From contig CAIRCU010000006.1 of NCBI GenBank assembly GCA_903877165.1, positions 2,580-66,579 of the forward strand: a stretch of 64,000 nt of DNA, read 5' to 3'. The translations under genes were made by a program, and so were the position numbers. The DNA is from Methanobacteriota archaeon (GTDB taxonomy: Archaea > Thermoplasmatota > E2 > DHVEG-1). The stretch's first letter is position 1, and each line of letters starts with the position of its first letter. Of the stretch, positions 7,871-54,395 are shown piece by piece. The notes beneath the pieces were generated by a model, which did no database searches, was not told where the DNA came from, and was given only the letters and a program-made list of their open reading frames with translations.

Positions 7871-9559
7871 TTAAGGTTTAGGACCCGCCGCGCTCTGAAT
7901 CTTCCCCCATGTGTCCCGCAGTTCCGTCGTGCGGTTCAAGACGAGATGGCCGGGGGTCGTGTCAGTGTCGACGCAGAAGTACCCGAGGCGTTCGAACTGG
8001 AAGCGATCTAGCGGCTTGCAGGTCTTGACCGCTGGCTCGACCTTACACTGCTGCAGGATCTCCAGGGATTGGGGGTTCAGGAGCGTCTTATAGTCGGCGC
8101 CCTTCTGATCCAGGGGATCGCGTACCGTGAACAGCTTGTTGTACAATCGGACTTCAGCGTCCACGGCGTCCGATGCGGACACCCAGTGGATCGTTGACTT
8201 CACCTTCCGGCCGTCCGGGGCGTACCCGCCCTTGGTCGCCGGGTCGTACGTGCAGCGCAGCTCCACGACCTTTCCATCGCGTTTGACGACATCCCGGCAG
8301 GTGATGAAATACGCGTAGCGCAGCCGTACCTCGCGGCCCAGGGCGAGACGGTAGAACTTCGGCGGCGGCTGCTCCATGAAGTCGTCCTGTTCGATGTACA
8401 GGGTCTTGGAGAACGGGATCCGCCGCGAGCCCATGCCCGGGTCCTCAGGGTTGTTGACGGCGTCGACCTCCTCCTTGGTCTCCGGGTAGTTCTCAATCGT
8501 CACTTTCAATGGCCTTAGGACGCCCATGTACCGCGGCGCGGTCTTGTTGAGATCCTCGCGGATGCAGTACTCGAGGAACTCGAAGTCCACGATGCTGTTG
8601 ACCTTGGCGACACCGATGCGCTTGGCGAACGTCCGGATCCCTGAGGGTGAGTACCCGCGTCTGCGCATCCCGGAGATCGTCGGAAGCCTTGGGTCGTCCC
8701 AGCCTTTGACGAGGCCGTCATTCACGAGTTGCAGTAGCAGCCGTTTGCTCATCACCGTGAAGGTGAGGTTAAGGCGGGCGAACTCGATTTGCTGCGGGTG
8801 GTACACGCCGAGGGCGTCCAGGAACCAGTCGTACAGCGGACGGTGGTTCTCGAACTCAAGTGTGCAGATCGAATGCGTGATGTGCTCGATGGAGTCCTCG
8901 AGGCCGTGCGCCCAGTCGTACATTGGGTAAATACACCATTTATCCCCTGTGTTGTGATGGGTGGCGCGCAGGATGCGGTACATCACCGGGTCGCGCATGT
9001 TGAGGTTCGGGTGGTTCATGTCGATCTTTGCGCGCAGGACCTTGGAGCCGTCCGGGAACTCCCCGGCCTTCATGCGGCGGAACAACGAAAGGTTCTCGTC
9101 GATGGAGCGGTCGCGGTACGGGCTCTTCGTCCCTGGATTGGTGAGGGTGCCACGCAGCTCCGCGATCTGGTCCGCGGTGAGGTCGTCGACGTACGCCTTG
9201 CCTTTCTTGACAAGGTCTTCTGCGTACGTGTACATCTGGTCGAAATAGTCGGAGGCATAGAACAATCTGTCCTGCCAGTCGAAGCCGAGCCATTTGACGT
9301 CCGTGATGATGGACTGGACGTACTCCTCTTCTTCTTTGGCTGGGTTGGTGTCGTCGAAGCGCAGGTTGCATTTGCCGTTGTACTGCTCGGCGATGCCGAA
9401 GTTCAGGCAGATGGATTTCGCATGGCCGATGTGCAGGTAGCCGTTTGGCTCCGGTGGGAACCGGGTATGTACGCGTCCCTGGTACTTGTTGGACGCGAGG
9501 TCCGCGTCGATGATCTCTCGGATGAAGTCCTTGCTTGCCTGCGGCTCGGCCATCTTCAC
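7871..9559 (-). CDS. glnS: glutaminyl-tRNA synthetase, bacterial-type
   Basis: Full-length collinear similarity to E. coli GlnRS, including [27 protein letters not shown] (HIGH), [14 protein letters not shown] (KMSKS), WCIYPMYD and the C-terminal anticodon-binding beta-barrels (HWVSA...FQFERLGYF). Confidence 0.9.
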
Positions 9560-18023: not shown

Positions 18024-18707
18024 TCACGCCTTTTTTTTCCTTGCGAGGAACGGCCCGGCGAGGATGTACACCAGGATCATTACCAGGAGTAGAAGGGGGC
18101 CAGCGATCCTCAGGAGGATTACGAGCGCGAGTGCGGTGATGATTACGAGGCTTGCCACTACAGTTGAGCGGTTCCCCAGTTTTGGAAAAAGGAGTGACGA
18201 GATTTTCATCAGACCGAGGAGAACGAGCACAGCGACGATGACGAGCGGCGGGAACCACGTGGTCCCCAACATCCCGAGAGATATGACGATGATGGTGCTC
18301 GCCGATGCTGGCAGGCCGACGAACACCTCTTTTTCTTTCAGGAGGTGGAACGATGAGAGCCGTGTCGCGGAGCAGAACAGAAAGAACAGCATCCCTGCGA
18401 GGAGGAGAGCGAAGACTACAGGATTCAGCGACGTCGCGGTGTACACCCCGTAGAGGAATACCAGGGGGGCGATCGTCAGGGAAGTCAAGTCCGCCATCGC
18501 CTCCAAGTAGTCGCCGACCTGTCCGCTGCCGAACCTGCGGGCGACGACGCCGTCCAGACCATCCGCAAGCAACGCCAGCAGAATCAACACAAACGCAAGG
18601 GGGAACTGCCCGGAGAACACCGCGAGGACAGCGAGCAGCCCGAAGCAGGCATTGAGAATCGAGAGCAAGTCTGCGGCAGTCAGGAATCTAAGCATGGATG
18701 TCGGCAA
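18024..18707 (-). CDS. pssA: CDP-alcohol phosphatidyltransferase; archaetidylserine synthase-like
   Basis: DGLDGVVARRFGSGQVGDYLEAMADL carries the D-G-x2-A-R-x8-G-x3-D-x3-D motif. It is a polytopic membrane protein overlapping psd by 20 nt. Confidence 0.8.
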   Translation of the reverse strand: MPTSMLRFLTAADLLSILNACFGLLAVLAVFSGQFPLAFVLILLALLADGLDGVVARRFGSGQVGDYLEAMADLTSLTIAPLVFLYGVYTATSLNPVVFALLLAGMLFFLFCSATRLSSFHLLKEKEVFVGLPASASTIIVISLGMLGTTWFPPLVIVAVLVLLGLMKISSLLFPKLGNRSTVVASLVIITALALVILLRIAGPLLLLVMILVYILAGPFLARKKKA

Positions 18708-19335
18708 GGGTATCCTCTCCTGCTTTCACTTTATCACGGAGTTTCACGGCAAGCGTGGAGACGGCAGCCTTGGGAAGATACACGTCCACGCGCGAACCCA
18801 GACGGATCAACCCGATGCGATCCCCTTTCTTCACTCGGTCGCCTTCCTTGATGTAGGGGATGATGCGTCGGGCGACGGTCCCCGCGATCTGCATGACTTT
18901 CACGCGGCCAACCGAAGAGTCGAAAAGTAGTGTCACGCGCTCGTTACGTTCGGAGTCCTTGGAGAACGCGGGGAGATGGCTTCCGTTTGTATGCTCCAGG
19001 CGGACGACGGTGCCGTCGACCGGGCTTCGATTCACATGCACGTTGTGGATGTTCAGGAAGGTCTTGACCCAGATGCAGGATCCCACATCCGGGTCGTCCA
19101 CAGGGGAGATGCCGGTGATGATGCCGTCAGCGACCGCGACGATTCCGGATCCGATGGTTCGCTCGGGATCACGGAAGAATACCACGAGGAGAACCAAGCC
19201 TATGATTCCAAGGAAGGTGAGGATGAGAAACCCGAAGCGTAGAAGCCCCTGGAGAACCATGCTGGCAGCGACGCAGGCGACCGTGACTAGCCCGACGCCC
19301 ACGATCCATGCAAGACCGCCACGCGCGATCCTCAT
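18688..19335 (-). CDS. psd: phosphatidylserine (archaetidylserine) decarboxylase proenzyme
   Basis: An N-terminal TM is present. The LGSRVD segment (GS cleavage-site region) and the overall size fit the small archaeal-type PSD. Its start overlaps the upstream membrane gene by 4 nt. Confidence 0.75.
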   Translation of the reverse strand: MRIARGGLAWIVGVGLVTVACVAASMVLQGLLRFGFLILTFLGIIGLVLLVVFFRDPERTIGSGIVAVADGIITGISPVDDPDVGSCIWVKTFLNIHNVHVNRSPVDGTVVRLEHTNGSHLPAFSKDSERNERVTLLFDSSVGRVKVMQIAGTVARRIIPYIKEGDRVKKGDRIGLIRLGSRVDVYLPKAAVSTLAVKLRDKVKAGEDTLADIHA

Positions 19336-20261
19336 GTGTGTTTCCCTCTAAAGATATGTTCAAGGGGGCCGTTGCGTTTCGGCAGTGAAATCGCATCCAT
19401 GATTTCATCGTATAACTCCGGGACAATCTTGAACGTGAGGAACAGCAGCGCGATGAGCGCAAGTAAGGAGCCGACCTTGCCGATGACGTTGTGCGCCATC
19501 TCAAAGGAGACGATACTGTCTCCGGTGAGTATCACGACTCCGGCGTTCCGCACCAGGTTCAGAAGGTAGACGGGGACGACTGTGGCAAGCAACGCGATGG
19601 CCCTGCGTTTCAGAGGGATCTTCGGCAGGGCGCCAAGCATTCCGACGAACAGCAGCAGGGACTGGATTGCTGTACAGGCGAAGATGATCCGGATGGGGAC
19701 GTCATTGTACAGAATGTTGGGCCCGTTCTGTACGGCACCGACCCCAAACAGATGGAGCAGCCAGACGGTCTGTCCGGCGACGGCCACGATGAGGCCGTCT
19801 CGGGCGCTGGGCAGCAGGATTTCAAGCGAGAAGTAGATAATGCCCGCTAGGAACGTCGCTCCTGCGATCCATTTCAGGGCGGAGGGGTGTTCATCGCGCT
19901 CTTTGGAGAGCCATTCGTGGTACGCCAGGTAGACGAGGACGTAGATGCCGACGACGCAGAGGGCGGCATTGAAAATATCGCCTCCTTCGGAGAAGTACAG
20001 CAGATTCGGATAGGTGGACCAAAACAGGGCGAAGAGCACCCAGCCGGTCATCTTCAGCTGGCTTCCGCGCTGCTTCTGACTGTCGAGTGTGCCGGCGCCG
20101 AGCAACAGCAGGCTGCTGAAGAGCGGGACTGCGATAACCCATTGGTAGGAGGGCTGCGGGTACGGGAAGAGGAAGAAGTTGACGAGGAGCATGGCTGACG
20201 GTCCGCCGAGGAACCACGCCAGAATCCGAAGATCCTTCCCAGATGTCTGTGATAGCGGCAT
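19332..20261 (-). CDS. artA: polytopic membrane protein, probable archaeosortase/exosortase family (ArtA-like)
   Basis: It has about 8 TM helices, a conserved Cys196 (IIFACTAIQ) and Arg238 42 residues later within NLVRNAGVVILTGD, as expected for the exosortase/archaeosortase Cys...Arg active site. It is translationally coupled to psd-pssA, the known genomic partners of artA. Confidence 0.5.
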   Translation of the reverse strand: MPLSQTSGKDLRILAWFLGGPSAMLLVNFFLFPYPQPSYQWVIAVPLFSSLLLLGAGTLDSQKQRGSQLKMTGWVLFALFWSTYPNLLYFSEGGDIFNAALCVVGIYVLVYLAYHEWLSKERDEHPSALKWIAGATFLAGIIYFSLEILLPSARDGLIVAVAGQTVWLLHLFGVGAVQNGPNILYNDVPIRIIFACTAIQSLLLFVGMLGALPKIPLKRRAIALLATVVPVYLLNLVRNAGVVILTGDSIVSFEMAHNVIGKVGSLLALIALLFLTFKIVPELYDEIMDAISLPKRNGPLEHIFRGKHT

Positions 20262-20459
20262 TGCTTGAAGATCAAGGCTCCATATTGGGTGAACCTACAA
20301 AAACCCATTGGTATTCAAAGGAGAAAGGGAACGAAAGAAACATGCTTCAGATAGAGGAGCATCTGTAACCGCCGTTGGCTGTCGCGCGACAGACGATGCG
20401 GACTCTCATGAGGAGTACGGAAGAAAAAGAAAAAAAAGAAAAAAGAGGGGGGTGGTTGT

Positions 20460-22070
20460 TTATATTTTCACGTAGAAGAACAGTATCTTCGCGGTGTACG
20501 ACTGTGTGGCTGATACGCCTTCGTCACAGGTCGCCGAGACCGTGATGGAGATTGCCCCAAGGCCCAGGAAGAACCCGGATTTGAAGCTGAAATCTCCGCC
20601 GACGAGCAGAGCGGCTTGGGTGGCTGTCTTTGAGACGTTCACCTTGTGCAGAATGCCACCGGTGATCGCGATGTTGCAGACCAGGTTCGTCGCGTTTGCT
20701 TCCCCGTCGTTCGTGGCCTTTGCGGTCACGCCTATTCCACCGGAGACCAACGAAACGGTCAGGTGTGGCATGAGATGCGGGCTTCCCCCAGTGTCGAAGT
20801 AGATGTCATTGTCTGATCCACGGGAGTCGGTCCAGACGATGAATGGGTAGTACACGTCCGCCATGTGCCAGGCGTTCACGACCGTCCCATCCTGATCATT
20901 GATCTGGAGTGGGGCTCCCCATGTGGCTCCTCCATCGGTTGAGGTGGTGAGGAACAGGTTCCCATCTTTCATGAACAAGCAGTAGGCGCTCGAACCGGAC
21001 ATGAAGACGCGCGGGTTGACTTCATCGGAGGCGGTGTTGGCGACCACGACGTTGTGCGTCCAGGTGACACCGTTATCCGCTGTGTAGCTGCACATGAGGT
21101 CTTGGTTGCCCGCAGCATCCGATTGGTAGACCACGATAGCGTTCGTCCCGCTGGCACCGACCGCTGGTTTCACACAGTTCGCGGTGTAGGGTGTCTCCCA
21201 CATGCCCCACTGAGTCTTCCACTGTTCCATGTCGTTCTGGGCGACGGCGTCACCCCAGCGGACGTTGATGATTTGTTTGCTTACTGTGGTGTTGGTGTAT
21301 TGGAACGCGAAGAAGAACAGGGTGCTGGTGGAGGCGATGGATGAGTAGGTTGCGGGGCGTCCGTTCCAGGTGCTGTCCCAGGTGAAGGTCCATGTGTCTG
21401 CAGCGGCTCCATTGTGGGTGACTACTGCGGCCGATGGGACGCTGTAGGGTGGGTAGACGATGTCCGCGATGTAGGTGAACGCGGCGATGGTGCGGTCTGT
21501 CACGTAGGTTGCGATCCCGCCGCAGTCATGGTTGTAAACCTGCTGAGCTGAGGGCGTGAAGTACTGCCATGTCCAAGCTGTCGGATCAATGCTTGGATCT
21601 TGGCCACTGAGGAAATACTGAGTGTCTGTTCCTTGGTCGATGAAGGCGACCCATAACAACCCTGTGGAATCGACGGTTGCCACTGGAGTGGTCTGGACAC
21701 CATCAACAGGGAGATACCATGCGGCGGACCAGGTCGCCCCGTTGTCCGTTGATTCTTTCATGAGGACATTAGGGTCGATTCCGTCGTCGAGGACGTAGAA
21801 GATCCAGAGGTTCCCGCTGCCGTCTTTGACGATGGATGGAGTCATTTCATTGCCGGCATCGCCTGCGGCCAGGACGTCGGTGCCTCGTCCGAGTGGTGAG
21901 GCCGAGGTCGCTTTCTGGAATTTGACGTTGGCGATTTGCGCATTTATGTTCGCTGCGGTTGGTGTAGTCTTGACAGTAAAAGCCGTTGCGCTTGGTAAAA
22001 GGAATGCCAAGGCGATGGCTAGTACTACAACTGCCTTTAACGAGTTTCTCTTCAGATGTGTTGCGCTCAT
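20460..22070 (-). CDS. secreted BNR/Asp-box repeat protein with a conserved hydrophobic C-terminal tail
   Basis: It has a signal peptide and Asp-box motifs STDNGATW, DNGVTWTH and TSTDGGATWG. The C-terminus ...SITVSATCDEGVSATQSYTAKILFFYVKI is homologous to the tail of the next gene. Confidence 0.7.
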   Translation of the reverse strand: MSATHLKRNSLKAVVVLAIALAFLLPSATAFTVKTTPTAANINAQIANVKFQKATSASPLGRGTDVLAAGDAGNEMTPSIVKDGSGNLWIFYVLDDGIDPNVLMKESTDNGATWSAAWYLPVDGVQTTPVATVDSTGLLWVAFIDQGTDTQYFLSGQDPSIDPTAWTWQYFTPSAQQVYNHDCGGIATYVTDRTIAAFTYIADIVYPPYSVPSAAVVTHNGAAADTWTFTWDSTWNGRPATYSSIASTSTLFFFAFQYTNTTVSKQIINVRWGDAVAQNDMEQWKTQWGMWETPYTANCVKPAVGASGTNAIVVYQSDAAGNQDLMCSYTADNGVTWTHNVVVANTASDEVNPRVFMSGSSAYCLFMKDGNLFLTTSTDGGATWGAPLQINDQDGTVVNAWHMADVYYPFIVWTDSRGSDNDIYFDTGGSPHLMPHLTVSLVSGGIGVTAKATNDGEANATNLVCNIAITGGILHKVNVSKTATQAALLVGGDFSFKSGFFLGLGAISITVSATCDEGVSATQSYTAKILFFYVKI

Positions 22071-22281
22071 AAAACTTCCCCTTTCTGCTTTCTATATTTC
22101 TCTTTGCCTATATATATCTTCTTTACGGGTATATATAAGCAAAGCTAGGATTCTGCTGTCATTTACGGATCTTGTGTGTTCTTCCCTGGACGTTGTTCAT
22201 CCGGTAGTTGAAGTGAAGAAGAGAGGCACCCGGAAGGGATTCCTTCCGGGATTTCACGTGGATGAGGGGCGACGTGTGGTT

Positions 22282-23313
22282 CTATTTAACCCCTATGATC
22301 CAGAACAGGAACACGAACCCGCTGGCCGTGCCTGTCACTGCGGTGGTGTTCTCCACGCAGTTGGCAGTCACCGTAATAGAGACTTCCCCAAAGCCAAGGA
22401 CCTTTTCACTGGTGGCGGTCGCCGATGCTCCGATGAGGATCGAGGGGATGCTGCCGGGGGTTGATTTGCCTTTCAGCAGGAATCCGCCGTTCATGGCGAT
22501 GGTCCAGCTGATGTTGGTGGCGTCCCCGTTACCGGTGTTCTCAATGACTGCGGTGACTGTTCCCTTGCTGCCCGTGATGCTGCTGATTTGCAGAGATGGC
22601 TTGGGCTGCTGTTGGCTTCCTGTGGTGATGGACATGTCGTCGTAGTAGACGGGGGTGGCGCTGTTAGCCCACAGGTCGACGGCTGAGAGTTTCAGCACGC
22701 CGCTCCCATCGTTGTCGGGGGTAGCGGTCCAGTTCTTCGCAATCAGCAGGTCGCCGTCGTAGTAGAATGCGAACATGTCAGAGGTCAGGTTGACCTCGGC
22801 GCGCAGCTCGCACCATTTCCCAAGTTGAAGAGGCAACGTGGCGGCGTCATTCTCGGATTCAACGACCATGAGGTCGGAGTCGAATCTGAGTTGGACCGCA
22901 TATATGCAGTTATTGTCGCCTCCATCCCAGTAGTCGCTGAGCAGGATGAAGTAGGTTTGGCCCATGACGTTCTGGGGGATGTACTGCCAGGCGATGTACG
23001 TGAAATTCCCCGATTCAATATCGTACTCGTGGACGTTGTCGCTTGCGTTGGAGATCATGTCTGAGTGCGGGGAGCTTCTCGACTGTACGTCAGAGACGGT
23101 GCCGTGGGCGTTAGAGTCGTTGTCCCAGCCTTTCCATCCGCCGCTGCCAGCAGAGCCATCGAGGAATGTTCCGTTGGCGTAGCTATCGAAGTTATCGCTC
23201 CAAATAATAGAGGTCTGTCGTGGGATTGGCGCGCGCGTTTGGGCAGACGCGTGCGGAAGAAAACTTGCGCTTAAGAGGAGTATTACTCCCAATACTAACA
23301 ATTTTGTTTTCAT
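22282..23313 (-). CDS. secreted protein (concanavalin/jelly-roll-like), sharing a C-terminal tail with the BNR protein
   Basis: It has a signal peptide (LLVLGVILLLSASFLPHASA). Its C-terminus ...SITVTANCVENTTAVTGTASGFVFLFWIIGVK aligns with the tail of 20460-22070. Confidence 0.6.
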   Translation of the reverse strand: MKTKLLVLGVILLLSASFLPHASAQTRAPIPRQTSIIWSDNFDSYANGTFLDGSAGSGGWKGWDNDSNAHGTVSDVQSRSSPHSDMISNASDNVHEYDIESGNFTYIAWQYIPQNVMGQTYFILLSDYWDGGDNNCIYAVQLRFDSDLMVVESENDAATLPLQLGKWCELRAEVNLTSDMFAFYYDGDLLIAKNWTATPDNDGSGVLKLSAVDLWANSATPVYYDDMSITTGSQQQPKPSLQISSITGSKGTVTAVIENTGNGDATNISWTIAMNGGFLLKGKSTPGSIPSILIGASATATSEKVLGFGEVSITVTANCVENTTAVTGTASGFVFLFWIIGVK

Positions 23314-23360
23314 ATCTCATGCCTCCCTATAGCCTTTGAGTAATTCGAATGGTCTTTCTT

Positions 23361-23404
23361 CCTATTATAAGTTATGTCCAGTTCCCCTGTTGTCTTTATA
23401 AAGG
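23361..23404. promoter_or_regulatory. divergent promoter region with two TATA-like boxes (CCTATTATAAG, CTTTATAAAGG)
   Basis: AT-rich boxes sit between the minus-strand secreted-protein gene (start 23313) and thyX (start 23479). Confidence 0.25.
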
Positions 23405-23478
23405 TCGCGGGTGAGGACGGTTGTTCATCACAATCCTTTTAGTGCCATGGCTCATAGCGGGTGCGGGTGGAGTGACGC

Positions 23479-24819: not shown

Positions 24820-25171
24820 TTTTTGGACGTATATAGATATTAGGTGCCAGTTTTTGTGTGTTTGGCCAAAAACCCGGGGAGAACCTTTATTATTCCGCAA
24901 CGTCCTCTGTGCATGCGTGGGGAATACATGAAGACTGATAGCACCCCGGGGGGAATGACGACTGTGATGTGCGGCTTTGGAGGCCTTGTGGGATCTCTTC
25001 CCATTTGGAATGCCCAACGTTCCTTAGCCTTTTCAGGGTCGATGGCATCCCATATCTCCTCTTTCTCCTCAGATGGACGATCGCCTCCCGATCTCCATAA
25101 TCTTGTGCATGTACAAGCGTTCAAGGCTGCACAGTAGCGTCACCCCCTCCTCGGTGCTATACCTCCTCCAT

Positions 25172-27202
25172 ATGAATAGTAATTTTTATATACTCGAAGG
25201 TTCTTTGTTGGGGGTGGAGGCTAAGGGTTTCGTGCGACTGAGAATATTGGCGGTTAGTCTTCTATGCGTGTTATTGGCAAGCACTGCCTGGGGCGTCAGC
25301 TTGCCACGCACCACCGCTCCGCAAACCCTGGTCGTCCATCTCGACTTCCAAGCGCCAACCTTCGTCGCGGACGGCGACACGTATCGAATCACCATCCCGG
25401 AAGCTCCCGCCTGTCTCTTCGAACCCGGCTGGCCCGCCCTCCCAAAATACCTCCAGACCTTCACCCTGCCCTTCGGCGCCGACGTCACCAACGTCGCAAT
25501 ACACACCTCGCATACGTCCGTCCTCATCCTGTCACACCCACTCTCATCCACACCGATACCCGCGATAAGTGGTCTCCCCACGGACATCGTCAGCGAAAAC
25601 GCGTACGGGCCCATGGAGTTCTACCCGCCTCAACAAGTCCTCTACCAGACCGGAGGCGGACTCGACGCCGCAGGCAAGCACGTTACCTTCCTCACCCTCA
25701 TCGTCATCCCCGCCCAGTACCAGACCTCGACGACGGCCCTGCGCTGGGCATGCAACTGGACCATCACCCTGTCCTACACCATTCCCTCCCACAATCCGTT
25801 CCCTACCGAATCAACCACGCCACTGGTCATCATCACCCCCGCAAGGTTCACCAAGGCGCTCGAGCCGCTCGTCGCTCATAAGATTGCGCTCGGCATCCCG
25901 ACCACAGTGAAGACCCTCACCGACATCTACCGGGAATACAACGGAAGAGACAAAGCGGAACAAATCAAATTCTTTATCAAAGACGCGGTCGACCACTGGG
26001 GTACCAAATACGTCCTGCTCGTCGGCGGTATGTCCACGACGCTCTTTGGAATGCCACGGGACTCCTCAAGTCTCGGCGCGAACGACTGGTTCATCCCCGT
26101 CCGATACTCGAACCTCAAGGACTTCTACACACCCAGCGACCCCGGCTTCATCTCCGACCTCTATTACGCTGATTTGTACAACGGCAACGGGCAGTTCTGC
26201 AGTTGGGACTCCAACGGCGACGGCGTCTACGGCGGCTGGGACCAGCCGTCTCTGTCCGGCGGGACCGTCGTCCCCCTCGGTCATGGAACGGACACCCTCG
26301 ACTTCTACCCTGACGTCTGCGTCGGCCGTCTCCCCTGCCGGACGGTCGCAGAATGCCGCACCATGGTTGATAAAATCATCGCCTATGAAAGTGTCCCTGC
26401 GAGCGCCTCCTGGCTACAGCGCATCCTCGTGGCCGCAGGCGACCCGTACTACGACGCCGGCACGAACATTTATGAAGGCGAGGCGATCGGCGATGCCGTC
26501 ATCTCGGCCCTCCCAGGACTTCAATCCATGCGTCTCTACGCCTCGTTCGAGGGAAACGACTCCTCGGCAACTCCTCTGACCCGCAACATCCTTCGAGAGC
26601 TCGATGCGGGCTGCTGCTTCCTCTTGTTGGATGGTCATGGCGGGCCCGGCTGGTGGAACACCTGCTGGCCCGGGCGCTGCAACGCCACGATTCTCCTCGG
26701 TGGTCTCTCTGATGCTGATTTGTACCGGCTGCATAACGGGGGGCTGCTCCCTGTGACCGTCATCGGCGGCTGCCATTGCTGCCAGTTTAACGTTACCCTG
26801 CTGTCGACCCTCCTGGACCCCAGCAACTCCCATGCAACGTGGTCGAACGGCCATCCTCTGTTCCGCTGCCTTGGCGAGGCGCTTCTGATGAAGAAGAACG
26901 GCGGGAGCATCGCAGTGATTGGTTCCACGGGCCTTGGGTATGAGCAGTCCGGGGAGAACGGGGACCTGGATGGAGACGGGCGGAACCTGCCGGATAGCGC
27001 CGAGGCGCTCGGCGGGTACCTGGAGGTCTCGTTGTTCCAGGCGTACCAGAACGGGACCCGGACGCTTGGTATGCTGTGGACTCAGGCGATAGGGCAGTAT
27101 CTTGAGCATTACCCGGGGATGCTGAATCGCGATGATGCGAAGACCGTTGAGGAGTGGGTCGTGCTCGGCGACCCCAGCCTGCTCGTCGGCGGCCACACGT
27201 AG
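25172..27202 (+). CDS. secreted peptidase C25 (gingipain-like) family protein
   Basis: It has a signal peptide (RLRILAVSLLCVLLASTAWG), a catalytic His in LLLDGHGGPGWW and a Cys in VTVIGGCHCCQF. A GTG at 25232 is an alternative start; the ORF-track ATG at 25073 is probably too far upstream. Confidence 0.7.
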   Translation: MNSNFYILEGSLLGVEAKGFVRLRILAVSLLCVLLASTAWGVSLPRTTAPQTLVVHLDFQAPTFVADGDTYRITIPEAPACLFEPGWPALPKYLQTFTLPFGADVTNVAIHTSHTSVLILSHPLSSTPIPAISGLPTDIVSENAYGPMEFYPPQQVLYQTGGGLDAAGKHVTFLTLIVIPAQYQTSTTALRWACNWTITLSYTIPSHNPFPTESTTPLVIITPARFTKALEPLVAHKIALGIPTTVKTLTDIYREYNGRDKAEQIKFFIKDAVDHWGTKYVLLVGGMSTTLFGMPRDSSSLGANDWFIPVRYSNLKDFYTPSDPGFISDLYYADLYNGNGQFCSWDSNGDGVYGGWDQPSLSGGTVVPLGHGTDTLDFYPDVCVGRLPCRTVAECRTMVDKIIAYESVPASASWLQRILVAAGDPYYDAGTNIYEGEAIGDAVISALPGLQSMRLYASFEGNDSSATPLTRNILRELDAGCCFLLLDGHGGPGWWNTCWPGRCNATILLGGLSDADLYRLHNGGLLPVTVIGGCHCCQFNVTLLSTLLDPSNSHATWSNGHPLFRCLGEALLMKKNGGSIAVIGSTGLGYEQSGENGDLDGDGRNLPDSAEALGGYLEVSLFQAYQNGTRTLGMLWTQAIGQYLEHYPGMLNRDDAKTVEEWVVLGDPSLLVGGHT

Positions 27203-45357: not shown

Positions 45358-47742
45358 ATGGCTGCACGACGGAAAATGTATTCATTGATTATCCTGCTGT
45401 TGCTTCTGAGCGCGAATGCCGCGGCGATCGTCCCGGTTCTCGCTCAATCGACATCACCTGATTCTGAATCTCAACAAAGCGCAGCATCCGCAGTAAAAGA
45501 ACCATCCGTAGTCCCGTTTACCTTCACGGTCTACGGAAAAGACGGACTGCGAACGTACACCACTCAGATGCCGTTCGCTGACGCGCAAGCCATTCTCGCG
45601 TCCTGCCGCACTCTCGCCAACACTATGGTCAGCAACCCACAGGGGACGACAAATCCGGGTCTGCAAGATCAGCTCCTGACCACGCTCCTAGCGCATCATG
45701 CCATCCCACAAGAAATCAAAGACAACGTGCTCGCTGTCCTGCGTCAGACGCCCAGATTTCCCTTCAGTTCCCATGAGAGCCGACATCTCACCCAGTTCAA
45801 CTCCCAGGCAAGCGAATGGCTCTGCAGCTTCGCCTCTGCGGGGGATGGCTCCTCCCTACCGATTATCATCCTGCCGCGGTTCATCCCCTTTATCCTGACC
45901 CCGATTCCGCGTGTGATCATGCGATGGAACGCTGACTATGCGGTCACCTCCTGCGGTGCGCTGCGGTCAAGCAACGGGTTCATCGCCGAAGGCGCACAGA
46001 GCGGTATCGCCCTGGGATTCTGGGGCATCGGCTTCACCGTCCACCTTCCACCCTTCATGAACACCTACGGGTTGTTCGGATACGCGGTCTACTCCCATGT
46101 GACCTCGGACTACATCGAGTTCTACCCTCCGAACAATCCTCCGGAGATCTCCGGCAGTGACCCCGCCGACGGCCAAACGGATGTCCCTGTGGCGCTCAGC
46201 GAGCTTCGGTTCCGCCTCGCCGATGCGGACGGAGACCTCATGAGCTACAACGTAACCACCATCCCGGACATCGGCTCCGGCAGCGGTGGTCTCAAGCCTG
46301 ACGGCGTCTACTCCTTACCTGTCAGCGGATTGAAAGAACTCACGAAGTACTCGTGGACCGTCAGCGTATCAGACGGCAAGGACACCACCACTCAGACTTA
46401 TTCCTTCACGACCGAAGGCGTCTCCCCTATCGTCTCCAACCCCCGGCCCTTCGATGGGGAAAAGGAAGTCCAAACCGACCTCACCGAGCTGCGCTTCACC
46501 CTGCAAGACCCCCAGCATGACTTCATGAGCTACACCGTCCAGACCTCTCCGGACATCGGGTCCGCAAGCGCCACGAACGTCGCGGGAGGAACCTACACCG
46601 TGCCTGTCAACGGCCTGACCATCGGGACCCTCTACCATTGGTACATCAACGCCACCGACGGGACCCATTGGACTAGGATGGTCCTCAGCTTCACCTCAGG
46701 GTACCCCTCCCACTTCAACCCCTATGACTATGGATGGCAGTACCGAAAACAGATCACTATCGACCACACCAAGGTCACTGAGCCCCTCACGAACTTCACG
46801 GTCCTCATCAGCATCACGGACAGCGACCTGACGAAGGCACAAAGCGACGGAGGCGACATCCTCTTCATGGACAACACCGGTTCCGCCGTGAAGATCCACC
46901 ATGAAATCGATGTCTTCGACTCATCCACCGGCACGCTTGCCGCATGGGTCCAAGTCCCTGAGCTATCCTCCACCACTGACACGGTGTTCTACATGTACTA
47001 CGGGAACCCTACCTGCGTCGACCAAGCATACCCTCAGGAGACCTGGGATTCCTCGTACCTCGCAGTCTGGCACATGGGGGACGCAACGACTTCGACCATC
47101 ACGGACAGCACGAATAACGACAACACCGGGACGAAAGGCGTAGTCAACGGACCGACGGAGCAGGGCGGCGTGACCGGAACAAGCCAGGACTTCGACGGCA
47201 CCGACGACTACATCCAATTCACCACCCCCATCATCCCCACCGGGCCAAAGACCGTCACCGGATGGATCAAGCGGCATACCACGGCAGACTACGGTGTCGT
47301 CCTCGCGACCTCCACCGGGATTAGCAGCCTAGACCGCGGAACCGCGTGGACCATGATCCCCGGCAACGACAAAAAAATGCAGTGCTTCCTCGGCAACGAC
47401 GAGTACGGATCCCATTACATGACCGTCTACATCACGATCCCAGACCTGACGAATTGGCACTACTACGCTATGACCTACGACGGTACGACCCTGCAGATGT
47501 ACCTCGATGGGTCCTCCGATGTCTCGACGACCACCAAGGTCGGCAGCGAAACCCCGCCAGACTACAACCTCCGCATGGGCAAGACCAACCATCCTTCCTA
47601 CGTCTACCCCCTCGACGGCACCCTCGATGACATCACCATCTCGGATGTCCCCCGCAGCATCGGTTGGGTACAGACATCGTACCAGACGATGAGCGACCCC
47701 GCACACTTCTTCACTGAAGGACCGGAGGAACACGGTCCATAA
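45358..47742 (+). CDS. large secreted protein, paralog 1: novel N-domain + 2x Ig/FN3-like + DUF2341 + LamG (concanavalin-like)
   Basis: It has a signal peptide (LIILLLLLSANAAAIVPVLA). The DUF2341 signature is YGWQYRKQITIDH...NFTVLISITDSDL...DGGDILFMD...WVQVPELSS..DTVFYMYYGNP. The LamG_3-like C-terminus is LDDITISDVPRS. Confidence 0.7.
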   Translation: MAARRKMYSLIILLLLLSANAAAIVPVLAQSTSPDSESQQSAASAVKEPSVVPFTFTVYGKDGLRTYTTQMPFADAQAILASCRTLANTMVSNPQGTTNPGLQDQLLTTLLAHHAIPQEIKDNVLAVLRQTPRFPFSSHESRHLTQFNSQASEWLCSFASAGDGSSLPIIILPRFIPFILTPIPRVIMRWNADYAVTSCGALRSSNGFIAEGAQSGIALGFWGIGFTVHLPPFMNTYGLFGYAVYSHVTSDYIEFYPPNNPPEISGSDPADGQTDVPVALSELRFRLADADGDLMSYNVTTIPDIGSGSGGLKPDGVYSLPVSGLKELTKYSWTVSVSDGKDTTTQTYSFTTEGVSPIVSNPRPFDGEKEVQTDLTELRFTLQDPQHDFMSYTVQTSPDIGSASATNVAGGTYTVPVNGLTIGTLYHWYINATDGTHWTRMVLSFTSGYPSHFNPYDYGWQYRKQITIDHTKVTEPLTNFTVLISITDSDLTKAQSDGGDILFMDNTGSAVKIHHEIDVFDSSTGTLAAWVQVPELSSTTDTVFYMYYGNPTCVDQAYPQETWDSSYLAVWHMGDATTSTITDSTNNDNTGTKGVVNGPTEQGGVTGTSQDFDGTDDYIQFTTPIIPTGPKTVTGWIKRHTTADYGVVLATSTGISSLDRGTAWTMIPGNDKKMQCFLGNDEYGSHYMTVYITIPDLTNWHYYAMTYDGTTLQMYLDGSSDVSTTTKVGSETPPDYNLRMGKTNHPSYVYPLDGTLDDITISDVPRSIGWVQTSYQTMSDPAHFFTEGPEEHGP

Positions 47743-47762: not shown

Positions 47763-50159
47763 ATGAGAAAAGAACGGTATAGTAAAATACAGCTTGTCCT
47801 CTGCATATGCCTCCTGTCGGTATTGCTCTGCGCAAGCCTAGCCCCTACCCTCGCAAGTCCGATATCCTACAACGCAACGCCACAAACGTCCAAGACGACG
47901 GTCGCAACAGAACCCCAGGCCATCCCCTTCACCGTCACGGTCTACGAAAAGACAGGGCTTCGTACCTACACGACCCAGATGAAGGAAAGCGACATCCAAG
48001 CCATCCTGCAGGAAGCATCAGCGCTGAGACTCGCTGTGCAGCACTCGCCGCAGGCAGAAGCAACCCAGCAGCTCCAAACGCAGTTTATCACCTCGTTACT
48101 TACGTATCAGGCGATACCGCAAGAAGCCAAGGACCAGGTGCTCGCCTCGCTGATGCAGCCGCCGACACTGCGCTCCCGCCACACTTCAGCTTCTCCCTTG
48201 TCCGGCACTAGCTCGGAAGGGACGGAATGGCTCTGCAACTTTGTCTCTGCTGGAGAAGGTTCCTCAGCGCCGATCATCATCCTGCCGCGGTTCATCCCCT
48301 TCATCCTCAGTCCCATCCCGCGTGTGTTCATGCGCTGGAGCGCTGACGACGCAATCACCTCCTGTGGCGCTCTACGGTCAAACAACGGGTTCGTCGCTGA
48401 AGGCGCACAGAGCGGTATCGCCCTGGGATTCTGGGGCATCGGCTTCACCGTCCACCTCCCGCCCCTCATGAACTCCTACGGTTTGTTCGGGTATGCTCTC
48501 TATGCGCATGTGACCGCTGATTACATAGAGTTCTTCCCGCCGAACAGCCCACCGGAGATCACGGGCGCTGACCCCGCCAATAATCAGCAGAACGTCCCGG
48601 TTACGCTGTCGGAACTGCGTTTCCAAATCGCTGACGCTGACCAGGATCTCATGAGTTACAACGTGACTACTTATCCGGATATCGGCTCCGGCAGTGGCGG
48701 CCTCAAATCCGATGGTGTCTACACGATTCCGATTAGCGGCCTGCAGGAACTCGCGAGCTACACCTGGCATGTCACGGTCAGTGACGGAAAGGATACAACG
48801 GATCAGACCTACAAGTTCACCACTGAAGCCGTAGCCCCGGTCATCTCAAACCCAAATCCTGCCGATGGGGAGCGCGAAGTCCCCATGGACATCCCTCAGC
48901 TTCAGTTCACCCTGAAAGACTACCAGCATGATGCCATGGACTATACTGTCGTGACGCAGCCAGATATCGGATCTGTTCAAGCCACAGGGGTCCACGATGG
49001 AACCTACACGGTCCCCGTGTCCGGTCTCACCTATGGCGTGACCTATCGATGGTTCATCAATGCGACCGACGGTACGCACTGGACCAGGAAGGTTCTTTCC
49101 TTCATCACGGGATACCCGTCGATTTTCGATCCATACGACTACGGCTGGCACTATCGCAAGCAGATCACCATCATACACGGCCAGGTCGCTGCCGACCTTC
49201 AGAACTTCCCGGTCCTCATCAGCATGACGGACCCAGATCTCGTTAGAGCACAGGCGGATGGCGCGGATTTCTTGTTCATGAGCGGACCAGGGCCCGCCAC
49301 CAAATGGCACCATGAGATTGAGACTTTCACGCACGACTCCGGCAGCCTTGTCGCCTGGGTCAACATCCCGCAGCTGTCCTCAACCCAGGACACCACCTTT
49401 TACCTGTACTATGGGAATCCGAACAGCTCTGACCAACAATATCCTGAAAAAACCTGGGATTCGTCAACCCTTGCCGTCTGGCATATGAATGACGCCACCA
49501 CATCGACTATCAAGGACAGCACGGGGCATGGTTTCACAGGCGTCAAGAAGGCGGCGTTGATGCCTTCGCAATGGTCCGGGAAGGTCGGCTATGGGCAGCT
49601 CTTCAACCTCACAGATTCAATATGGGAGTACATCGTCGTTTACGATCAAGGAGGCCTCAGCATCCCCAATGATTTCACCCTCTCTGCATGGATTCTGCCT
49701 TACACCGATGCTGGCATGAACGTCGCAGGGAAGCACCAGGAGATCCGGGCAGATTATTCGGGATATGCCATCCATTGGAACGTAGTGGGTTCTGAGACGA
49801 AGATGTCCCTGCGTTGCGATGGAGGCGGGTACGCATACCAATACATCTATGCGGACAACCAAGTTCCCAGCAATACCTGGTACTATTTGTCTGGTGAGAA
49901 GCGACTCGGGACGAACTATGTGTTCGTCGACGGCCAGCAGCAGAGCCATACCGGGACACAGTCCCTCCTCAACTCCGAGTACCCGTTCTGCATCGGTGCT
50001 TGGACGACTGACCCGAATAGCATCAACTTCAATGGCGTCATCGATGAGGTCCGCCTCTCGTCCACAGGTCGATCCCCTGCGTGGATCCAGACCGAGTATC
50101 ACACCATGAGTGATCCTGCATCGTTCTTCACGGTAGGGCCTGAGGAACATAGTCCATAA
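47763..50159 (+). CDS. large secreted protein, paralog 2 (same architecture)
   Basis: It has a signal peptide, a conserved N-domain (QSGIALGFWGIGFTVHLPP), DUF2341 (YGWHYRKQITIIHG...FYLYYGNP) and a LamG-like C-terminus (IDEVRLSSTGRSPAWIQTEY). Confidence 0.7.
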   Translation: MRKERYSKIQLVLCICLLSVLLCASLAPTLASPISYNATPQTSKTTVATEPQAIPFTVTVYEKTGLRTYTTQMKESDIQAILQEASALRLAVQHSPQAEATQQLQTQFITSLLTYQAIPQEAKDQVLASLMQPPTLRSRHTSASPLSGTSSEGTEWLCNFVSAGEGSSAPIIILPRFIPFILSPIPRVFMRWSADDAITSCGALRSNNGFVAEGAQSGIALGFWGIGFTVHLPPLMNSYGLFGYALYAHVTADYIEFFPPNSPPEITGADPANNQQNVPVTLSELRFQIADADQDLMSYNVTTYPDIGSGSGGLKSDGVYTIPISGLQELASYTWHVTVSDGKDTTDQTYKFTTEAVAPVISNPNPADGEREVPMDIPQLQFTLKDYQHDAMDYTVVTQPDIGSVQATGVHDGTYTVPVSGLTYGVTYRWFINATDGTHWTRKVLSFITGYPSIFDPYDYGWHYRKQITIIHGQVAADLQNFPVLISMTDPDLVRAQADGADFLFMSGPGPATKWHHEIETFTHDSGSLVAWVNIPQLSSTQDTTFYLYYGNPNSSDQQYPEKTWDSSTLAVWHMNDATTSTIKDSTGHGFTGVKKAALMPSQWSGKVGYGQLFNLTDSIWEYIVVYDQGGLSIPNDFTLSAWILPYTDAGMNVAGKHQEIRADYSGYAIHWNVVGSETKMSLRCDGGGYAYQYIYADNQVPSNTWYYLSGEKRLGTNYVFVDGQQQSHTGTQSLLNSEYPFCIGAWTTDPNSINFNGVIDEVRLSSTGRSPAWIQTEYHTMSDPASFFTVGPEEHSP

Positions 50160-52688: not shown

Positions 52689-54395
52689 TTAATTATGGGT
52701 AAGAACGCCGGTCAGAGTGGGTTTTTGGCTTTCGATGCGAACAAAACCGAACCGTTCAAACTGAACGGTCTCTCCAGGCGGGATGCCTCCAACCGCCTGC
52801 TCTGCGAACCCCTCCACCGTCCGAAGGCTCTCGGCGTTGAACGTGTCGTTAACGAAGATCGGCCCCGGAACGATAACAGTCATCCTTATGAACTGATCTG
52901 ATGTCCACTGGATCTTCGCGGTATCAGCGAGGAGCTTCTCGCCTGCGTAGCTACCGTTCACCTCGTTGTCTATATGGGTAACCCTGACGTTGAACAGGTC
53001 TTTGAGCCGGATTGTGTCTCCCACCTTGAATCGAGCTACATCCTCCTTTGGGATGTAGAAGGTGGATGATACTTTTACTTCTCGCTCTCCCATCGCGGCC
53101 GTGGGATGCAGTCGGATTCGTTTCGTCTTCAACGGGGCACCAATGACCGTGAGTTTCACCGGCTGCGGGACGAAGAAATACCGTTTGACCCGCGGGTCGA
53201 GGTACTTGCGGTTGGCGGCTTCGACCAGGCTGAAATCCACGACTGATTCGACCTTCGAAGTGCCCTGGGAGAGTACGAACAGGCGGATTGCCTCCGGGGT
53301 GATCCCCCGGTGTCGCAGCCCCCGCAGCGTCGGCAGACGTACGTCATCATACCCAGAGACGAGGCCCTGCTCGATGAGCGGCTTGATTTTCCGTTTTGAC
53401 ACCGGCATCCCCTCGATGGAGAGCCTGGCGAACTCGATGAGATGAGGCTTGCGGAGCTTGAGTTTATCGAGAATGTAGAAGTACACCTCGTCGCGCAGCT
53501 CGTATTCTTTCGTGCGGAACGGGTGCGTCACCCCGCTGATGCTGTCTTCGACTGCGCCTGCGAAATCGTACGTCGGCCACAGCCGGTACTTCGTCCCAGT
53601 GAGCGGATGCGGCGACTCGATCACCCGGAACAGCGTAGGATCACGCATGGCGGTATTGGCACTGCTCATGTCCGCCTTCAACCGTAGGATTGCGTTCTTC
53701 ACTGTCCCGTTTTGCAGTCCTTCAAACAACTCAAGGGATTCTTTCCCCCGAGACCGACACGCGCACGCAATGCCCTTGAACCTGGAATCCCGAATCACTT
53801 CCGAGGAGCACGTACAGACGTAGGCGTCCCCCTGGATGATGAGTTGTCTGGCGAGCTGATAATGAACGGGGAGATGATCGGAGGTATTGTACTCTTCATT
53901 CCAGGTTATCCCAAGCCACTGGAGGTCCTCTTTCTGCGCCTGGTAGAACTCGACCTGCGCGTTCTCCGGGTTCGTATCATCAAACCGCAGGATGAACTTC
54001 CCGTCGTACATCCTCGCGTACTCGCTGTCGATGATCGCGGCCTTCGCATGACCGATGTGCAGATAGCCGTTCGGCTCCGGAGGAAACCGTGTCACGACCT
54101 TTCCTTTCTCCGCAGCTGGGAGCGGCGGCAGTGAAAAATCCCGTTCTTTCTTCTCCTTCACAAGCAACTCTGGTGCGAGACGAGTAAGTTCGGCACGTTG
54201 CTGCTCAAGAGAGAGACTGTTGACTTCTGAGACGACCTCATGGACCACCAGGTTGATTTCCTGGGGCGTCACCGGGGTTCCTTTGAAGGCAGCGATGACC
54301 TTCCCAGCGACCGCCTTCTCGTTCGCCTTCCCGTTGAACTGCACTGAGTTCTGCAGCGCAAATTTCCGCGCCTCCTCAGGAATCGACCCAGGCAT
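52689..54395 (-). CDS. gltX: glutamyl-tRNA synthetase, archaeal/eukaryotic GlxRS type
   Basis: [21 protein letters not shown] is the HIGH motif and MPVSKRK is the KMSKS motif. The archaeal-type C-terminal anticodon-binding domain gives 568 aa. Confidence 0.85.
   Translation of the reverse strand: MPGSIPEEARKFALQNSVQFNGKANEKAVAGKVIAAFKGTPVTPQEINLVVHEVVSEVNSLSLEQQRAELTRLAPELLVKEKKERDFSLPPLPAAEKGKVVTRFPPEPNGYLHIGHAKAAIIDSEYARMYDGKFILRFDDTNPENAQVEFYQAQKEDLQWLGITWNEEYNTSDHLPVHYQLARQLIIQGDAYVCTCSSEVIRDSRFKGIACACRSRGKESLELFEGLQNGTVKNAILRLKADMSSANTAMRDPTLFRVIESPHPLTGTKYRLWPTYDFAGAVEDSISGVTHPFRTKEYELRDEVYFYILDKLKLRKPHLIEFARLSIEGMPVSKRKIKPLIEQGLVSGYDDVRLPTLRGLRHRGITPEAIRLFVLSQGTSKVESVVDFSLVEAANRKYLDPRVKRYFFVPQPVKLTVIGAPLKTKRIRLHPTAAMGEREVKVSSTFYIPKEDVARFKVGDTIRLKDLFNVRVTHIDNEVNGSYAGEKLLADTAKIQWTSDQFIRMTVIVPGPIFVNDTFNAESLRTVEGFAEQAVGGIPPGETVQFERFGFVRIESQKPTLTGVLTHN

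Follow-up and report, generated by a model that had tools for sequence, protein, structure and literature searches.

An archaeosortase A operon beside genes for exported proteins with a putative CARDB-like C-terminal domain in an uncultured Thermoplasmata-type archaeon

The window, as the whole 64-kb stretch of DNA analysed is termed here, belongs to an uncultured Thermoplasmata-type archaeon. It contains a string of five consecutive minus-strand genes, whose products are, in 5' to 3' order, of 343, 536, 309, 215 and 227 aa (Table 1). The string was described in an earlier note, and the list of open reading frames bears out all five sets of coordinates; the C-terminal tails quoted there for the 343-aa and 536-aa proteins are letter-exact. 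Does the co-oriented string represent a single transcript? Probably not. The 343-aa and 536-aa genes are separated by 211 bp, and the 536-aa gene and artA by 198 bp. Archaeal transcription terminates at oligo-T tracts, and the tract behind the 536-aa gene is likely a terminator that parts this gene from artA. Two TATA-like boxes, 37-58 nt 5' of the start codon, suggest that the 536-aa gene probably has a promoter of its own. The 343-aa, 536-aa and artA genes thus appear to be separate transcription units.

Table 1. Positions of the genes, domains and putative signals within the window
Feature	Position	Strand	Remarks
pssA, CDP-alcohol phosphatidyltransferase, archaetidylserine-synthase type	18024..18707	-	PF01066; 227-aa open reading frame
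psd/pssD, phosphatidyl/archaetidylserine decarboxylase, 215 aa	18688..19335	-	NF003685, PF02666
ArtA, 309 aa, polytopic	19332..20261	-	TIGR04125, TIGR04178; Cys196, Arg238, His257
Oligo-T (pyrimidine) tract, 26 nt	20421..20446	-	directly 3' of the 536-aa stop codon; read from sequence
Exported BNR/sialidase-like beta-propeller protein, 536 aa	20460..22070	-	BNR_2; C-terminal domain (CTD) at end
CTD of the 536-aa protein	20463..20774	-	about residues 433-536; HMM envelope, final ~104 residues
Two TATA-like boxes	22107..22138	-	5' of the 536-aa start; read from sequence
Exported protein, 343 aa	22282..23313	-	signal peptide, ConA-like N-domain, short linker, C-terminal CARDB-like CTD
CTD of the 343-aa protein	22285..22602	-	about residues 238-343; HMM envelope
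C25-family (gingipain-like) cysteine peptidase, 709 aa	25073..27202	+	PF01364, 205 bits; conserved neighbour
Membrane/surface protein, 386 aa	60899..62059	-	ends ...SATPGFEILIALGALAVVVLVIRKKKQGQ; classical tripartite PGF-type signal

The 309-aa protein had been termed archaeosortase-like, and the curated models agree: it scores 130.6 bits with the ArtA model TIGR04125 (cutoff 75) and 57.4 bits with the exosortase/archaeosortase signature TIGR04178 (cutoff 23). When it is classified against the archaeosortase profiles, as the earlier note had proposed, ArtA alone is above cutoff, and in the curated HMM search the protein stays under the cutoff in every one of the remaining Art/Xrt subtype models. 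There are 553 ArtA homologues, many of which carry the name ‘archaeosortase A (PGF-CTERM-specific)’. The hallmark residues Cys196 and Arg238, the latter within NLVRNAG, are present as claimed and, together with His257, are invariant in an alignment of 18 ArtA sequences of 55-100% identity; the three are candidate catalytic residues. By profile and residue pattern, this is a genuine ArtA of the canonical PGF-CTERM type.

The artA stop codon and the psd start codon overlap in an ATGA (19332-19335), which verifies the translational coupling that had been proposed. The psd and pssA genes overlap by 8 nt (ATGCTTAG) if pssA starts at the in-frame ATG at 18695; this start gives a 223-aa product that matches relatives and is likelier to be the true one than the TTG at 18707. 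Identities assigned earlier to these two genes hold at the level of the general families, as psd scores 193.6 bits with NF003685 (cutoff 183) and 132.5 bits with PF02666, and pssA 35.7 bits with PF01066 (cutoff 22). Neither reaches the cutoff of the ‘protein sorting system’ equivalogs (psd, NF038088, 162.9 bits vs 240; pssA, NF038086, 96 bits vs 200, and TIGR04217, 112.4 bits vs 200), and the top NCBIfam matches of pssA are archaetidylserine synthase models, none of which attains its cutoff. In related loci with enough downstream sequence, psd and pssA are found 3' of artA.

The clustering of artA, pssA and pssD, and its role in lipid anchoring, have been published (PMC7157517), and artA-psd-pssA appears here as an ordinary lipid-anchoring operon of a kind already known from methanogens. 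With the ArtA/PGF-CTERM systems of Haloferax volcanii and of Methanosarcina, with its artA-pssA-pssD cluster, the locus shares the sortase family TIGR04125 with its Cys, Arg and His residues, the clustering and translational coupling of artA with decarboxylase and phosphatidyltransferase genes, and the presence of a PGF-type tripartite tail in the genome. It differs in that it belongs to an uncultured Thermoplasmata lineage known here from sequence alone, that its psd and pssA fall below the equivalog cutoffs, and that the sole PGF-type tail in the window fits Heimdall-CTERM better than PGF_CTERM. By analogy with the Haloferax work, PssA would form archaetidylserine from CDP-archaeol and serine, PssD would decarboxylate it to archaetidylethanolamine, and ArtA would cut PGF-type tripartite signals and join the new C-terminus to a lipid.

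A cognate signal for ArtA is present within the window, at the end of the 386-aa protein, where PGF is followed by a 15-residue apolar run and RKKK, with a hydropathy of 2.5 in the best 19-residue window. This tail scores 33.2 bits with the Heimdall-CTERM model NF045529 (cutoff 24), the PGF_CTERM match being weaker. The protein is a candidate for an ordinary ArtA substrate, and a likely one in this genome. All the DNA examined yielded just two classical tripartite tails, and the normal ArtA substrate pool of the lineage is therefore poorly sampled.

The two proteins encoded 5' of artA are of another type. A full-length AlphaFold2 (AF2) model of the 343-aa protein (pLDDT 72.5) consists of a signal helix at residues 2-17, an all-beta N-domain and the CTD. 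The N-domain (about residues 36-231) is a concanavalin-A-like lectin/glucanase jelly-roll, with Foldseek matches to the calreticulin lectin domain, CBM66, GH16 and galectins at E of about 1e-5, and orthologues of the protein lie 5' of artA in nine related loci (L001, L002, L003, L009, L011-L013, L082 and L084). The 536-aa protein matches BNR_2 with 37.2 bits (cutoff 31.4); it has an orthologue of 78% identity in L001 and a relative of 28% identity in L008. Both would be Sec-exported and directed at glycans, the 343-aa protein with a ConA-like lectin module, the 536-aa protein with a BNR beta-propeller, and each is capped by the CTD.

That the two proteins share a homologous module at the C-terminus was proposed from the sequence, with a length of about 35 aa. 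The homology stands (BLASTP E = 4e-13, 33% identity) and the length does not: the alignment extends over about 110 residues, 421-533 of the 536-aa and 225-337 of the 343-aa protein, so that the ‘tail’ makes up only the final third of a complete domain of about 105 aa. An AF2 model of the CTD built on a 58-sequence alignment (pLDDT 97.2, pTM 0.87) is an Ig/CARDB-type beta-sandwich, in which strands at domain positions 70-83 and 86-104 constitute a terminal hairpin that corresponds to the tail, and the C-terminal apolar segment is modelled as a beta-strand within the sandwich at pLDDT >94. The earlier note had allowed that the tail might turn out to be the last strand of an Ig-like fold, and so it was found (pLDDT 97). 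The column profile of 150 members, which is independent of the AF2 model, also supports a terminal beta-hairpin: apolar and polar residues alternate at positions 75-82 and 87-94, charged residues make up 20-60% in the ‘linker’ columns, and only columns 97-101 are uniformly apolar. The hairpin would consist of strand F (I-T-V-T-A-T), a Cys-x-Glu-Gly turn, and strand G ending in an apolar run of 5-8 residues; the C-terminal peptides are ...GFVFLFWIIGVK and ...AKILFFYVKI. The turn is near-invariant among the 150 members (77-79% conserved), and its Cys-x-Glu motif lies about 20 residues before the protein end.

The family, with the signature G-[FL]-G...I-T-V-T-A-T-C-[DA]-E-G...apolar-strand, comprises 1,477 clusters, and every named member is from Thermoplasmatota. 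Its fusion partners are PKD, PQQ/BNR propeller, beta-helix, FG-GAP and peptidase C10 modules, and of 89 members available at full length, 79 carry a hydrophobic segment at the N-terminus. No curated model describes it, which bears out the suggestion that the shared module was undescribed. Its Ig-like sandwich resembles solved CARDB (PF07705) structures, e.g. PF1109 (3idu/2kl6) and Methanosarcina MA_4588 (2l0d). Pfam CARDB gives 20.4 bits with the isolated CTD of the 343-aa protein (gathering 22.7) and no match with that of the 536-aa protein, while 33 of 58 family members match at E <= 0.01, the best at 8e-6. In the window, the match covers only CARDB profile positions 16-83 of 101, and the terminal hairpin therefore lies outside it. 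CARDB domains typically occur in arrays, whereas the CTD is strictly C-terminal, single-copy and has its own signature. The CTD probably constitutes a new C-terminal subfamily of CARDB-like domains. Ig/CARDB domains are not usually confined to the C-terminus; such a placement is more characteristic of modules for sorting or attachment.

How are CTD genes distributed with respect to artA? Of 58 related loci, covered over at most 20 kb each, 19 have a co-oriented CTD gene directly 5' of artA; nearly all of these belong to a single sub-clade, and they include 15 of the 16 loci where ArtA is at least 60% identical. Only about four copies are found elsewhere in 757 kb. In one sub-clade, CTD genes are non-randomly adjacent to artA. 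The artA-adjacent genes are of three unrelated N-terminal types, with up to three tandem copies. In the remaining 39 loci there is no CTD gene 5' of artA and the slot is empty or occupied by Nuo-like or other genes, yet the artA-psd-pssA unit is intact. These loci speak against the notion of substrates encoded in cis for this sortase. The interval between thyX and artA is an insertion-prone slot, in which empty, Nuo-like, CTD-bearing and other states alternate between loci, and the CTD-artA adjacency tracks ArtA phylogeny. Shared ancestry could explain the enrichment, and the adjacency may reflect a synteny inherited within the lineage, in an intergenic slot whose content varies; a functional link between the CTD and ArtA is unlikely.

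Taken as a whole, the locus is probably a known ArtA operon that lies beside genes for Sec-exported proteins capped by a non-cleaved, surface-associating CARDB-like CTD, a reading held with moderate confidence. The most likely role of the CTD is in surface association or oligomerization: it would be a folded module rather than a cleavable sortase signal, and might hold exoproteins at the envelope non-covalently.

The CTD might instead be a mere Ig-like spacer or stabilizer with no part in sorting or anchoring. In that case its place at the protein end and next to artA would be a chance legacy of domain shuffling and tandem duplication in a variable slot. The generic sandwich fold, the insertion-prone interval, the tandem paralogues (three in locus L014) and an adjacency that follows ArtA phylogeny are all consistent with this. 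However, in 148 of 150 representatives no more than 7 residues follow the domain, and no protein carries it internally or more than once, which is hard to square with a neutral spacer, and the last strand, unusually apolar on both faces, together with the conserved turn motif suggests a specific interaction. A spacer role is possible but rather unlikely.

The earlier note proposed that the tail is a new signal of this sortase. In this explanation, the CTD or its last ~35 residues would be recognized by ArtA for lipid anchoring dependent on PssA and PssD, with the substrates in cis. The non-random adjacency favours it, as does the presence of the CTD on all three unrelated N-domains beside artA, its solely C-terminal position with a conserved Cys-x-Glu near the end, and the restriction of named members to a phylum whose relatives carry this ArtA. 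Known tripartite signals (PGF-CTERM, PEP-CTERM, CGP-CTERM, MYXO-CTERM and others) are likewise C-terminal on many unrelated exported proteins, and a short conserved Cys motif followed by an apolar stretch recalls the Cys-containing ones. These signals, however, are linear and of 20-35 residues, whereas the CTD is folded and has about 105. In an ArtA-type signal the signature motif directly abuts a transmembrane helix (Haft preprint); in the CTD, a polar, often charged strand of about 10-12 residues separates Cys-x-Glu-Gly from the apolar run. This run is no longer than 11 residues (median 6; n=150), and a membrane-spanning segment of about 17-20 residues is absent. Median hydropathy of the tail over 19 residues is 0.94, and it reaches at least 1.6 in only 10 of the 150. 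There is no basic C-terminal cluster either: 3 of 150 members have two or more Lys or Arg among their six C-terminal residues, and an acidic residue falls within the last four positions in 20 of 150. The suggestion that the tails are not PGF-CTERM is confirmed, in that no NCBIfam sorting-signal model, PGF-CTERM included, matches either tail or any of 58 isolated CTDs. The sortase is of the canonical type with a PGF-type tail in its genome, the operon persists in loci that lack a CTD gene, Cys and Glu of the turn are absent in about 22% of CTD members, and the genes look like separate transcription units. As the tail is the last beta-hairpin of a confidently folded domain of about 100 residues, a new sortase signal is very unlikely.

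Could another machine be involved? The T9SS CTDs (type A/B) of Bacteroidota are also Ig-like domains of about 100 aa at the C-terminus of diverse secreted proteins, with a C25 peptidase nearby. A C25 gene is a conserved neighbour here, 1.8-4.7 kb 5' of artA in many loci, with or without a CTD gene, and there is no co-variation of C25 and CTD genes across related loci. That the CTD is a folded sorting signal processed by this peptidase, as in the T9SS, where the C25-family sortase PorU removes the CTD, is suggested by its ~100-aa beta-sandwich at the very end of many unrelated exoproteins and by the peptidase's top NCBIfam match, the PorU model, yet the explanation is most improbable. That match scores 69.7 bits where the cutoff is 420, which does not identify a cognate PorU-type sortase, and neither a match to T9SS CTD sequence models nor preferential structural similarity was found for the CTD. 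These organisms are not known to have an outer membrane or a T9SS.

A broader possibility is that the CTD represents an unrecognized folded sorting or attachment domain of Thermoplasmatota, akin to T9SS CTDs in logic and matured via ArtA/PssD/PssA or the C25 peptidase. This is quite unlikely; cleavage or lipidation at the Cys-x-Glu-Gly hairpin turn would be one possibility. If true, it would explain both the strict C-terminal position of the domain and its repeated placement directly 5' of artA.

The reading of the five-gene region that seems moderately probable, with its core claims taken jointly, is a standard ArtA operon and separate exported proteins whose shared tail is the terminal hairpin of a CARDB-like domain. 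All five co-oriented minus-strand ORFs, and both tail sequences quoted in the earlier note, were recovered exactly. The C-termini of the 343-aa lectin-like and 536-aa BNR proteins (one ending ...TASGFVFLFWIIGVK, the other ...TAKILFFYVKI) are indeed homologous, but the extent of about 35 aa first given to the module did not hold: about 110 residues align (421-533 of the 536-aa against 225-337 of the 343-aa protein, BLASTP, E = 4e-13). A 35-aa tail as an autonomous unit is ruled out, as BLASTP, HMM envelopes and AlphaFold2 all give a domain of about 105 aa, here termed the CTD.

The earlier note had named, as an outcome that would count against a sorting signal, the last strand of an Ig-like fold shared with genomes that lack this sortase; on the first half of this, AlphaFold2 places the tail as the terminal beta-hairpin of such a fold. 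The isolated CTD is predicted to be all-beta (pLDDT 97.2, pTM 0.87, 58-sequence alignment), the tail forming two long paired strands in the model (CTD residues 70-83 and 86-104) whose predicted connecting turn holds the Cys-x-Glu. A full-length model of the 343-aa protein, of lower and only moderate confidence (6-sequence alignment), has the same CTD topology and a predicted signal helix and ConA-like lectin/glucanase jelly-roll N-domain. Does the hairpin depend on prediction? Column statistics from 150 family representatives make it evident independently: positions 75-82 alternate between about 100% and about 15% apolar (I-T-I-T-V-T-A-T), positions 87-94, formerly taken as a variable linker, alternate likewise and are 20-60% charged at some positions, and only 97-101 are uniformly apolar. 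Among the same 150, Cys is present in 77% and Glu in 79%, the Cys-[Asp/Ala]-Glu-Gly turn (CTD 83-86) is kept in about 75-80%, and no partner cysteine is conserved. The turn may represent a metal site, a covalent modification site or an intermolecular disulfide.

How large is the family? An exhaustive profile search gave at least 1,477 clusters (50% identity) at E <= 1e-3, and 309 at E <= 1e-10. Such a search was needed; word-index homologue searches with the CTD gave 3 and 10 matches, mostly fragments. A genome-contig scan with a 10-sequence CTD sub-alignment gave only 4 loci. The window holds no copies besides the two. Members with a taxon name are all Thermoplasmatota, Thermoplasmata, Thermoplasmatales or "Euryarchaeota" MAGs. 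Pfam CARDB matches weakly in 33 of 58 isolated CTDs (best E = 8e-6), none of the 58 matches an NCBIfam model, and a PDB sequence search with the CTD profile returned nothing significant. The CTD is a new, uncurated variant in the CARDB/Ig superfamily, set apart by its strictly C-terminal position, the conserved G-x-G...ITVTATC[DA]EG hairpin and a terminal strand that is apolar. It ends within seven residues of the protein C-terminus in 148 of the 150 top representatives (exactly at it in 110), with the consensus LGFGk.tItVtAtC[DA]EG.sa..ta.G.vlLFFvlGVK and variants that include ...GTQIIIFTxV and ...GKLLLFFVTGL. An N-terminal hydrophobic segment is found in 79 of 89 full-length CTD proteins, and the modules capped are PKD arrays, PQQ and BNR propellers, beta-helices, FG-GAP repeats and a C10 peptidase. 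Within the lectin-like 343-aa family, an additional PKD domain lies between lectin module and CTD in some members (locus L004, 4957-6297; protein P0267). One of these members, P0176, has the alternative ending ...GTQIIIFTSVS; thus the tail subtype is not tied to the N-terminal family.

The sortase-like gene pointed out earlier, when classed against curated Art/Xrt models, is archaeosortase A: the 309-aa protein scores 130.6 bits with TIGR04125 (cutoff 75) and 57.4 with the exosortase/archaeosortase signature model (cutoff 23), and all other Art/Xrt subtype models fall under cutoff. Its homologues number 553 at E <= 1e-5, many annotated "archaeosortase A (PGF-CTERM-specific)", and those with taxon names are Thermoplasmata or Thermoplasmatota MAGs. 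An alignment of 18 sequences shows Cys196, Arg238 and His257 without exception. NF003685 (193.6 against a cutoff of 183) and PF02666 identify the 215-aa protein as a phosphatidylserine decarboxylase, and the pssA product is a CDP-alcohol phosphatidyltransferase whose top matches are archaetidylserine synthase models, each under its cutoff. The proposed artA/psd translational coupling is borne out by the ATGA (19332-19335) shared by artA stop and psd start. Also overlapping are psd and pssA (region 18693-18707, minus strand), where an in-frame ATG at 18695 gives an 8-nt ATGCTTAG overlap and a 223-aa product. Relatives likewise have an 8-nt overlap and products of 222-223 aa; because both overlap and length agree, ATG 18695 is probably the true start and TTG 18707 wrong. 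The two upstream genes are not overlap-coupled to the operon, being set apart by gaps of 211 and 198 bp, with a 26-nt oligo-T tract (20446-20421) directly 3' of the 536-aa stop and TATA-like boxes 5' of its start. From gaps, tract and boxes, the string probably represents three transcription units; a bacterial-type promoter/terminator scan is uninformative for an archaeon. Clustering of artA with pssA and pssD has already been published, as has the finding that ArtA-dependent lipid anchoring needs PssA/PssD (PMC7157517, citing Haft 2012). The operon is known in kind and nothing new as such, one more instance, from Thermoplasmata, of an association already described.

Coordinates of features in the window and, in the last line, in the related locus L019
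Feature	Position	Strand	Remark
343-aa protein	22282-23313	-	ORF
536-aa protein	20460-22070	-	ORF
ArtA, 309-aa polytopic protein	19332-20261	-	ORF
psd product, 215 aa	18688-19335	-	ORF
pssA product, 227 aa	18024-18707	-	mechanical ORF, TTG start
Cys-[Asp/Ala]-Glu-Gly turn	residues 319-322 (343-aa), 515-518 (536-aa)		
thyX-artA slot	20262-23478		
C25 (gingipain-family) cysteine peptidase	25073-27202	+	
Three tandem ~790-aa paralogues	45358-47742, 47763-50159, 50179-52551	+	
Pair of class-I tRNA synthetase paralogues, Glu/Gln type	7871-9559, 52689-54395	both -	
386-aa protein, N-terminal TM segments, textbook PGF + TM + RKKK tail	60899-62059	-	Heimdall-CTERM model
362-aa ORF of L019	3716-4801	+	beside artA

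Why, then, do the CTD genes lie beside artA? In the first seven genomes (ArtA identity 57-100%), every protein encoded in the slot between divergent thyX and artA carries the CTD, on three unrelated N-terminal types, one lectin-like of about 340 aa and two BNR. A genome-contig scan with a single ArtA sequence gave no confirmed relatives; 80 more loci (identity 49-79%) came from metagenomes scanned with an ArtA profile. Of the 58 loci that extend 1.3 kb or more upstream of artA, 19 have a co-oriented CTD gene directly upstream: 15 of 16 where ArtA is at least 60% identical to that of the window, 4 of 35 at 55-59%, and 0 of 7 below 55%. Loci without a slot CTD gene still have artA-psd-pssA intact. 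Across the related loci L001-L090, about 17-20 have no gene in the equivalent interval, divergent thyX lying 15-650 bp from artA; about 17 have a NuoH/NuoN-like membrane-complex operon there, four an unrelated gene on the opposite strand (L071, L073, L085, L090), L089 a C25 peptidase directly upstream of artA, and 19 between one and three tandem CTD genes (three in L014). Classical ArtA substrates mostly do not take the place of absent CTD genes; thyX, the Nuo-like operon and others do. The single exception is L019 (ArtA 58% identical), where the gene between a Nuo-like operon and artA is a 362-aa ORF whose product ends ...IYLIFGVVLLIAVVLSFILGRYRFSKK. This end is a classical TM-plus-basic anchor without PGF motif, and the protein may be an ArtA-adjacent substrate of another kind.

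The adjacency is a real local enrichment, since only about four CTD ORFs lie outside the slot in 757 kb, and it is phylogenetically clustered, in an insertion-prone interval. A single event or a few, inherited since, can explain it with no function needed, though it may also be functional. That the CTD is a neutral structural domain, its synteny accidental, has perhaps one chance in a handful, or slightly better; strict C-terminality is the sole property that still suggests more than a plain Ig spacer.

The proposal of the earlier note, that the tail is a novel ArtA-dependent signal, is improbable. CTD genes adjoin artA and the CTD is terminal, but ArtA is of canonical type, 39 of the 58 loci have no CTD gene in cis, and fold and composition disagree. 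Membrane-embedded sortase signals, PGF-CTERM included, are tripartite, with a motif abutting a TM helix without spacer, then a basic cluster (Haft preprint), and the CTD family shows none of these features. In 150 members apolar runs have a median length of 6 residues and reach at most 11, hydropathy in the best 19-residue window has a median of 0.94 (1.6 or more in only 10), at least two K/R are among the last six residues in 3, and an acidic residue is at the end in 20. A folded hairpin that lacks both a TM-length apolar run and a basic cluster leaves the sortase-signal claim unsupported. The tail of the 386-aa protein (...SATPGFEILIALGALAVVVLVIRKKKQGQ) scores 33.2 with Heimdall-CTERM (cutoff 24; the PGF_CTERM match is weaker), with an apolar run of 15 residues and hydropathy of 2.5; the genome that encodes this canonical ArtA thus also encodes at least one candidate substrate of canonical type. 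The genome looks Thermoplasmata, not Heimdallarchaeia, though this tail passes that NCBIfam model, whose name may be too narrow taxonomically.

The least credible reading, by analogy, makes the CTD a T9SS-CTD-like folded signal processed by the neighbouring C25 peptidase, but the peptidase scores 69.7 with the PorU model (cutoff 420), T9SS CTD similarity is absent, presence of the C25 gene does not track that of CTD genes, and the analogy found neither sequence nor preferential structural support. The T9SS sortase PorU model is the peptidase's top NCBIfam match, far under cutoff, and many loci have the gene as a conserved neighbour of artA, 1.8-4.7 kb upstream, CTD genes present or not. Elsewhere in the window, the ~790-aa paralogues each have a signal-peptide-like N-terminus, DUF2341 and Laminin_G_3 (ConA-like) domains and a similar C-terminus, ...F(F/M)x(E/V/I)GPEExxP; they look like another exported lectin-like family with a conserved C-terminal motif. 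Both tRNA synthetase paralogues, within 64 kb, have tRNA-synt_1c and both anticodon-binding domains.

In the preferred reading of operon plus separate exported proteins, artA-psd-pssA would be a standard lipid-anchoring operon acting on PGF-type tails, by analogy with Haloferax enzymology, and the upstream genes would encode Sec-exported glycan-directed proteins, each capped by a CARDB-like C-terminal beta-sandwich. CARDB/Ig modules have a general role on cell-surface proteins. Because of that role, the strict terminal position and the bilaterally apolar last strand, the CTD may constitute a folded surface-association or oligomerisation module. Were it linked functionally to ArtA or to some other processing enzyme, no folded-domain sorting signal would have been described in archaea before it. 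The family is large and uncatalogued, and in uncultured Thermoplasmatota many exported proteins end in it; with its sub-clade-specific position beside artA, it merits a curated model, which would improve secretome annotation for these abundant sediment and freshwater archaea and help the study of exoenzyme retention at the cell surface.
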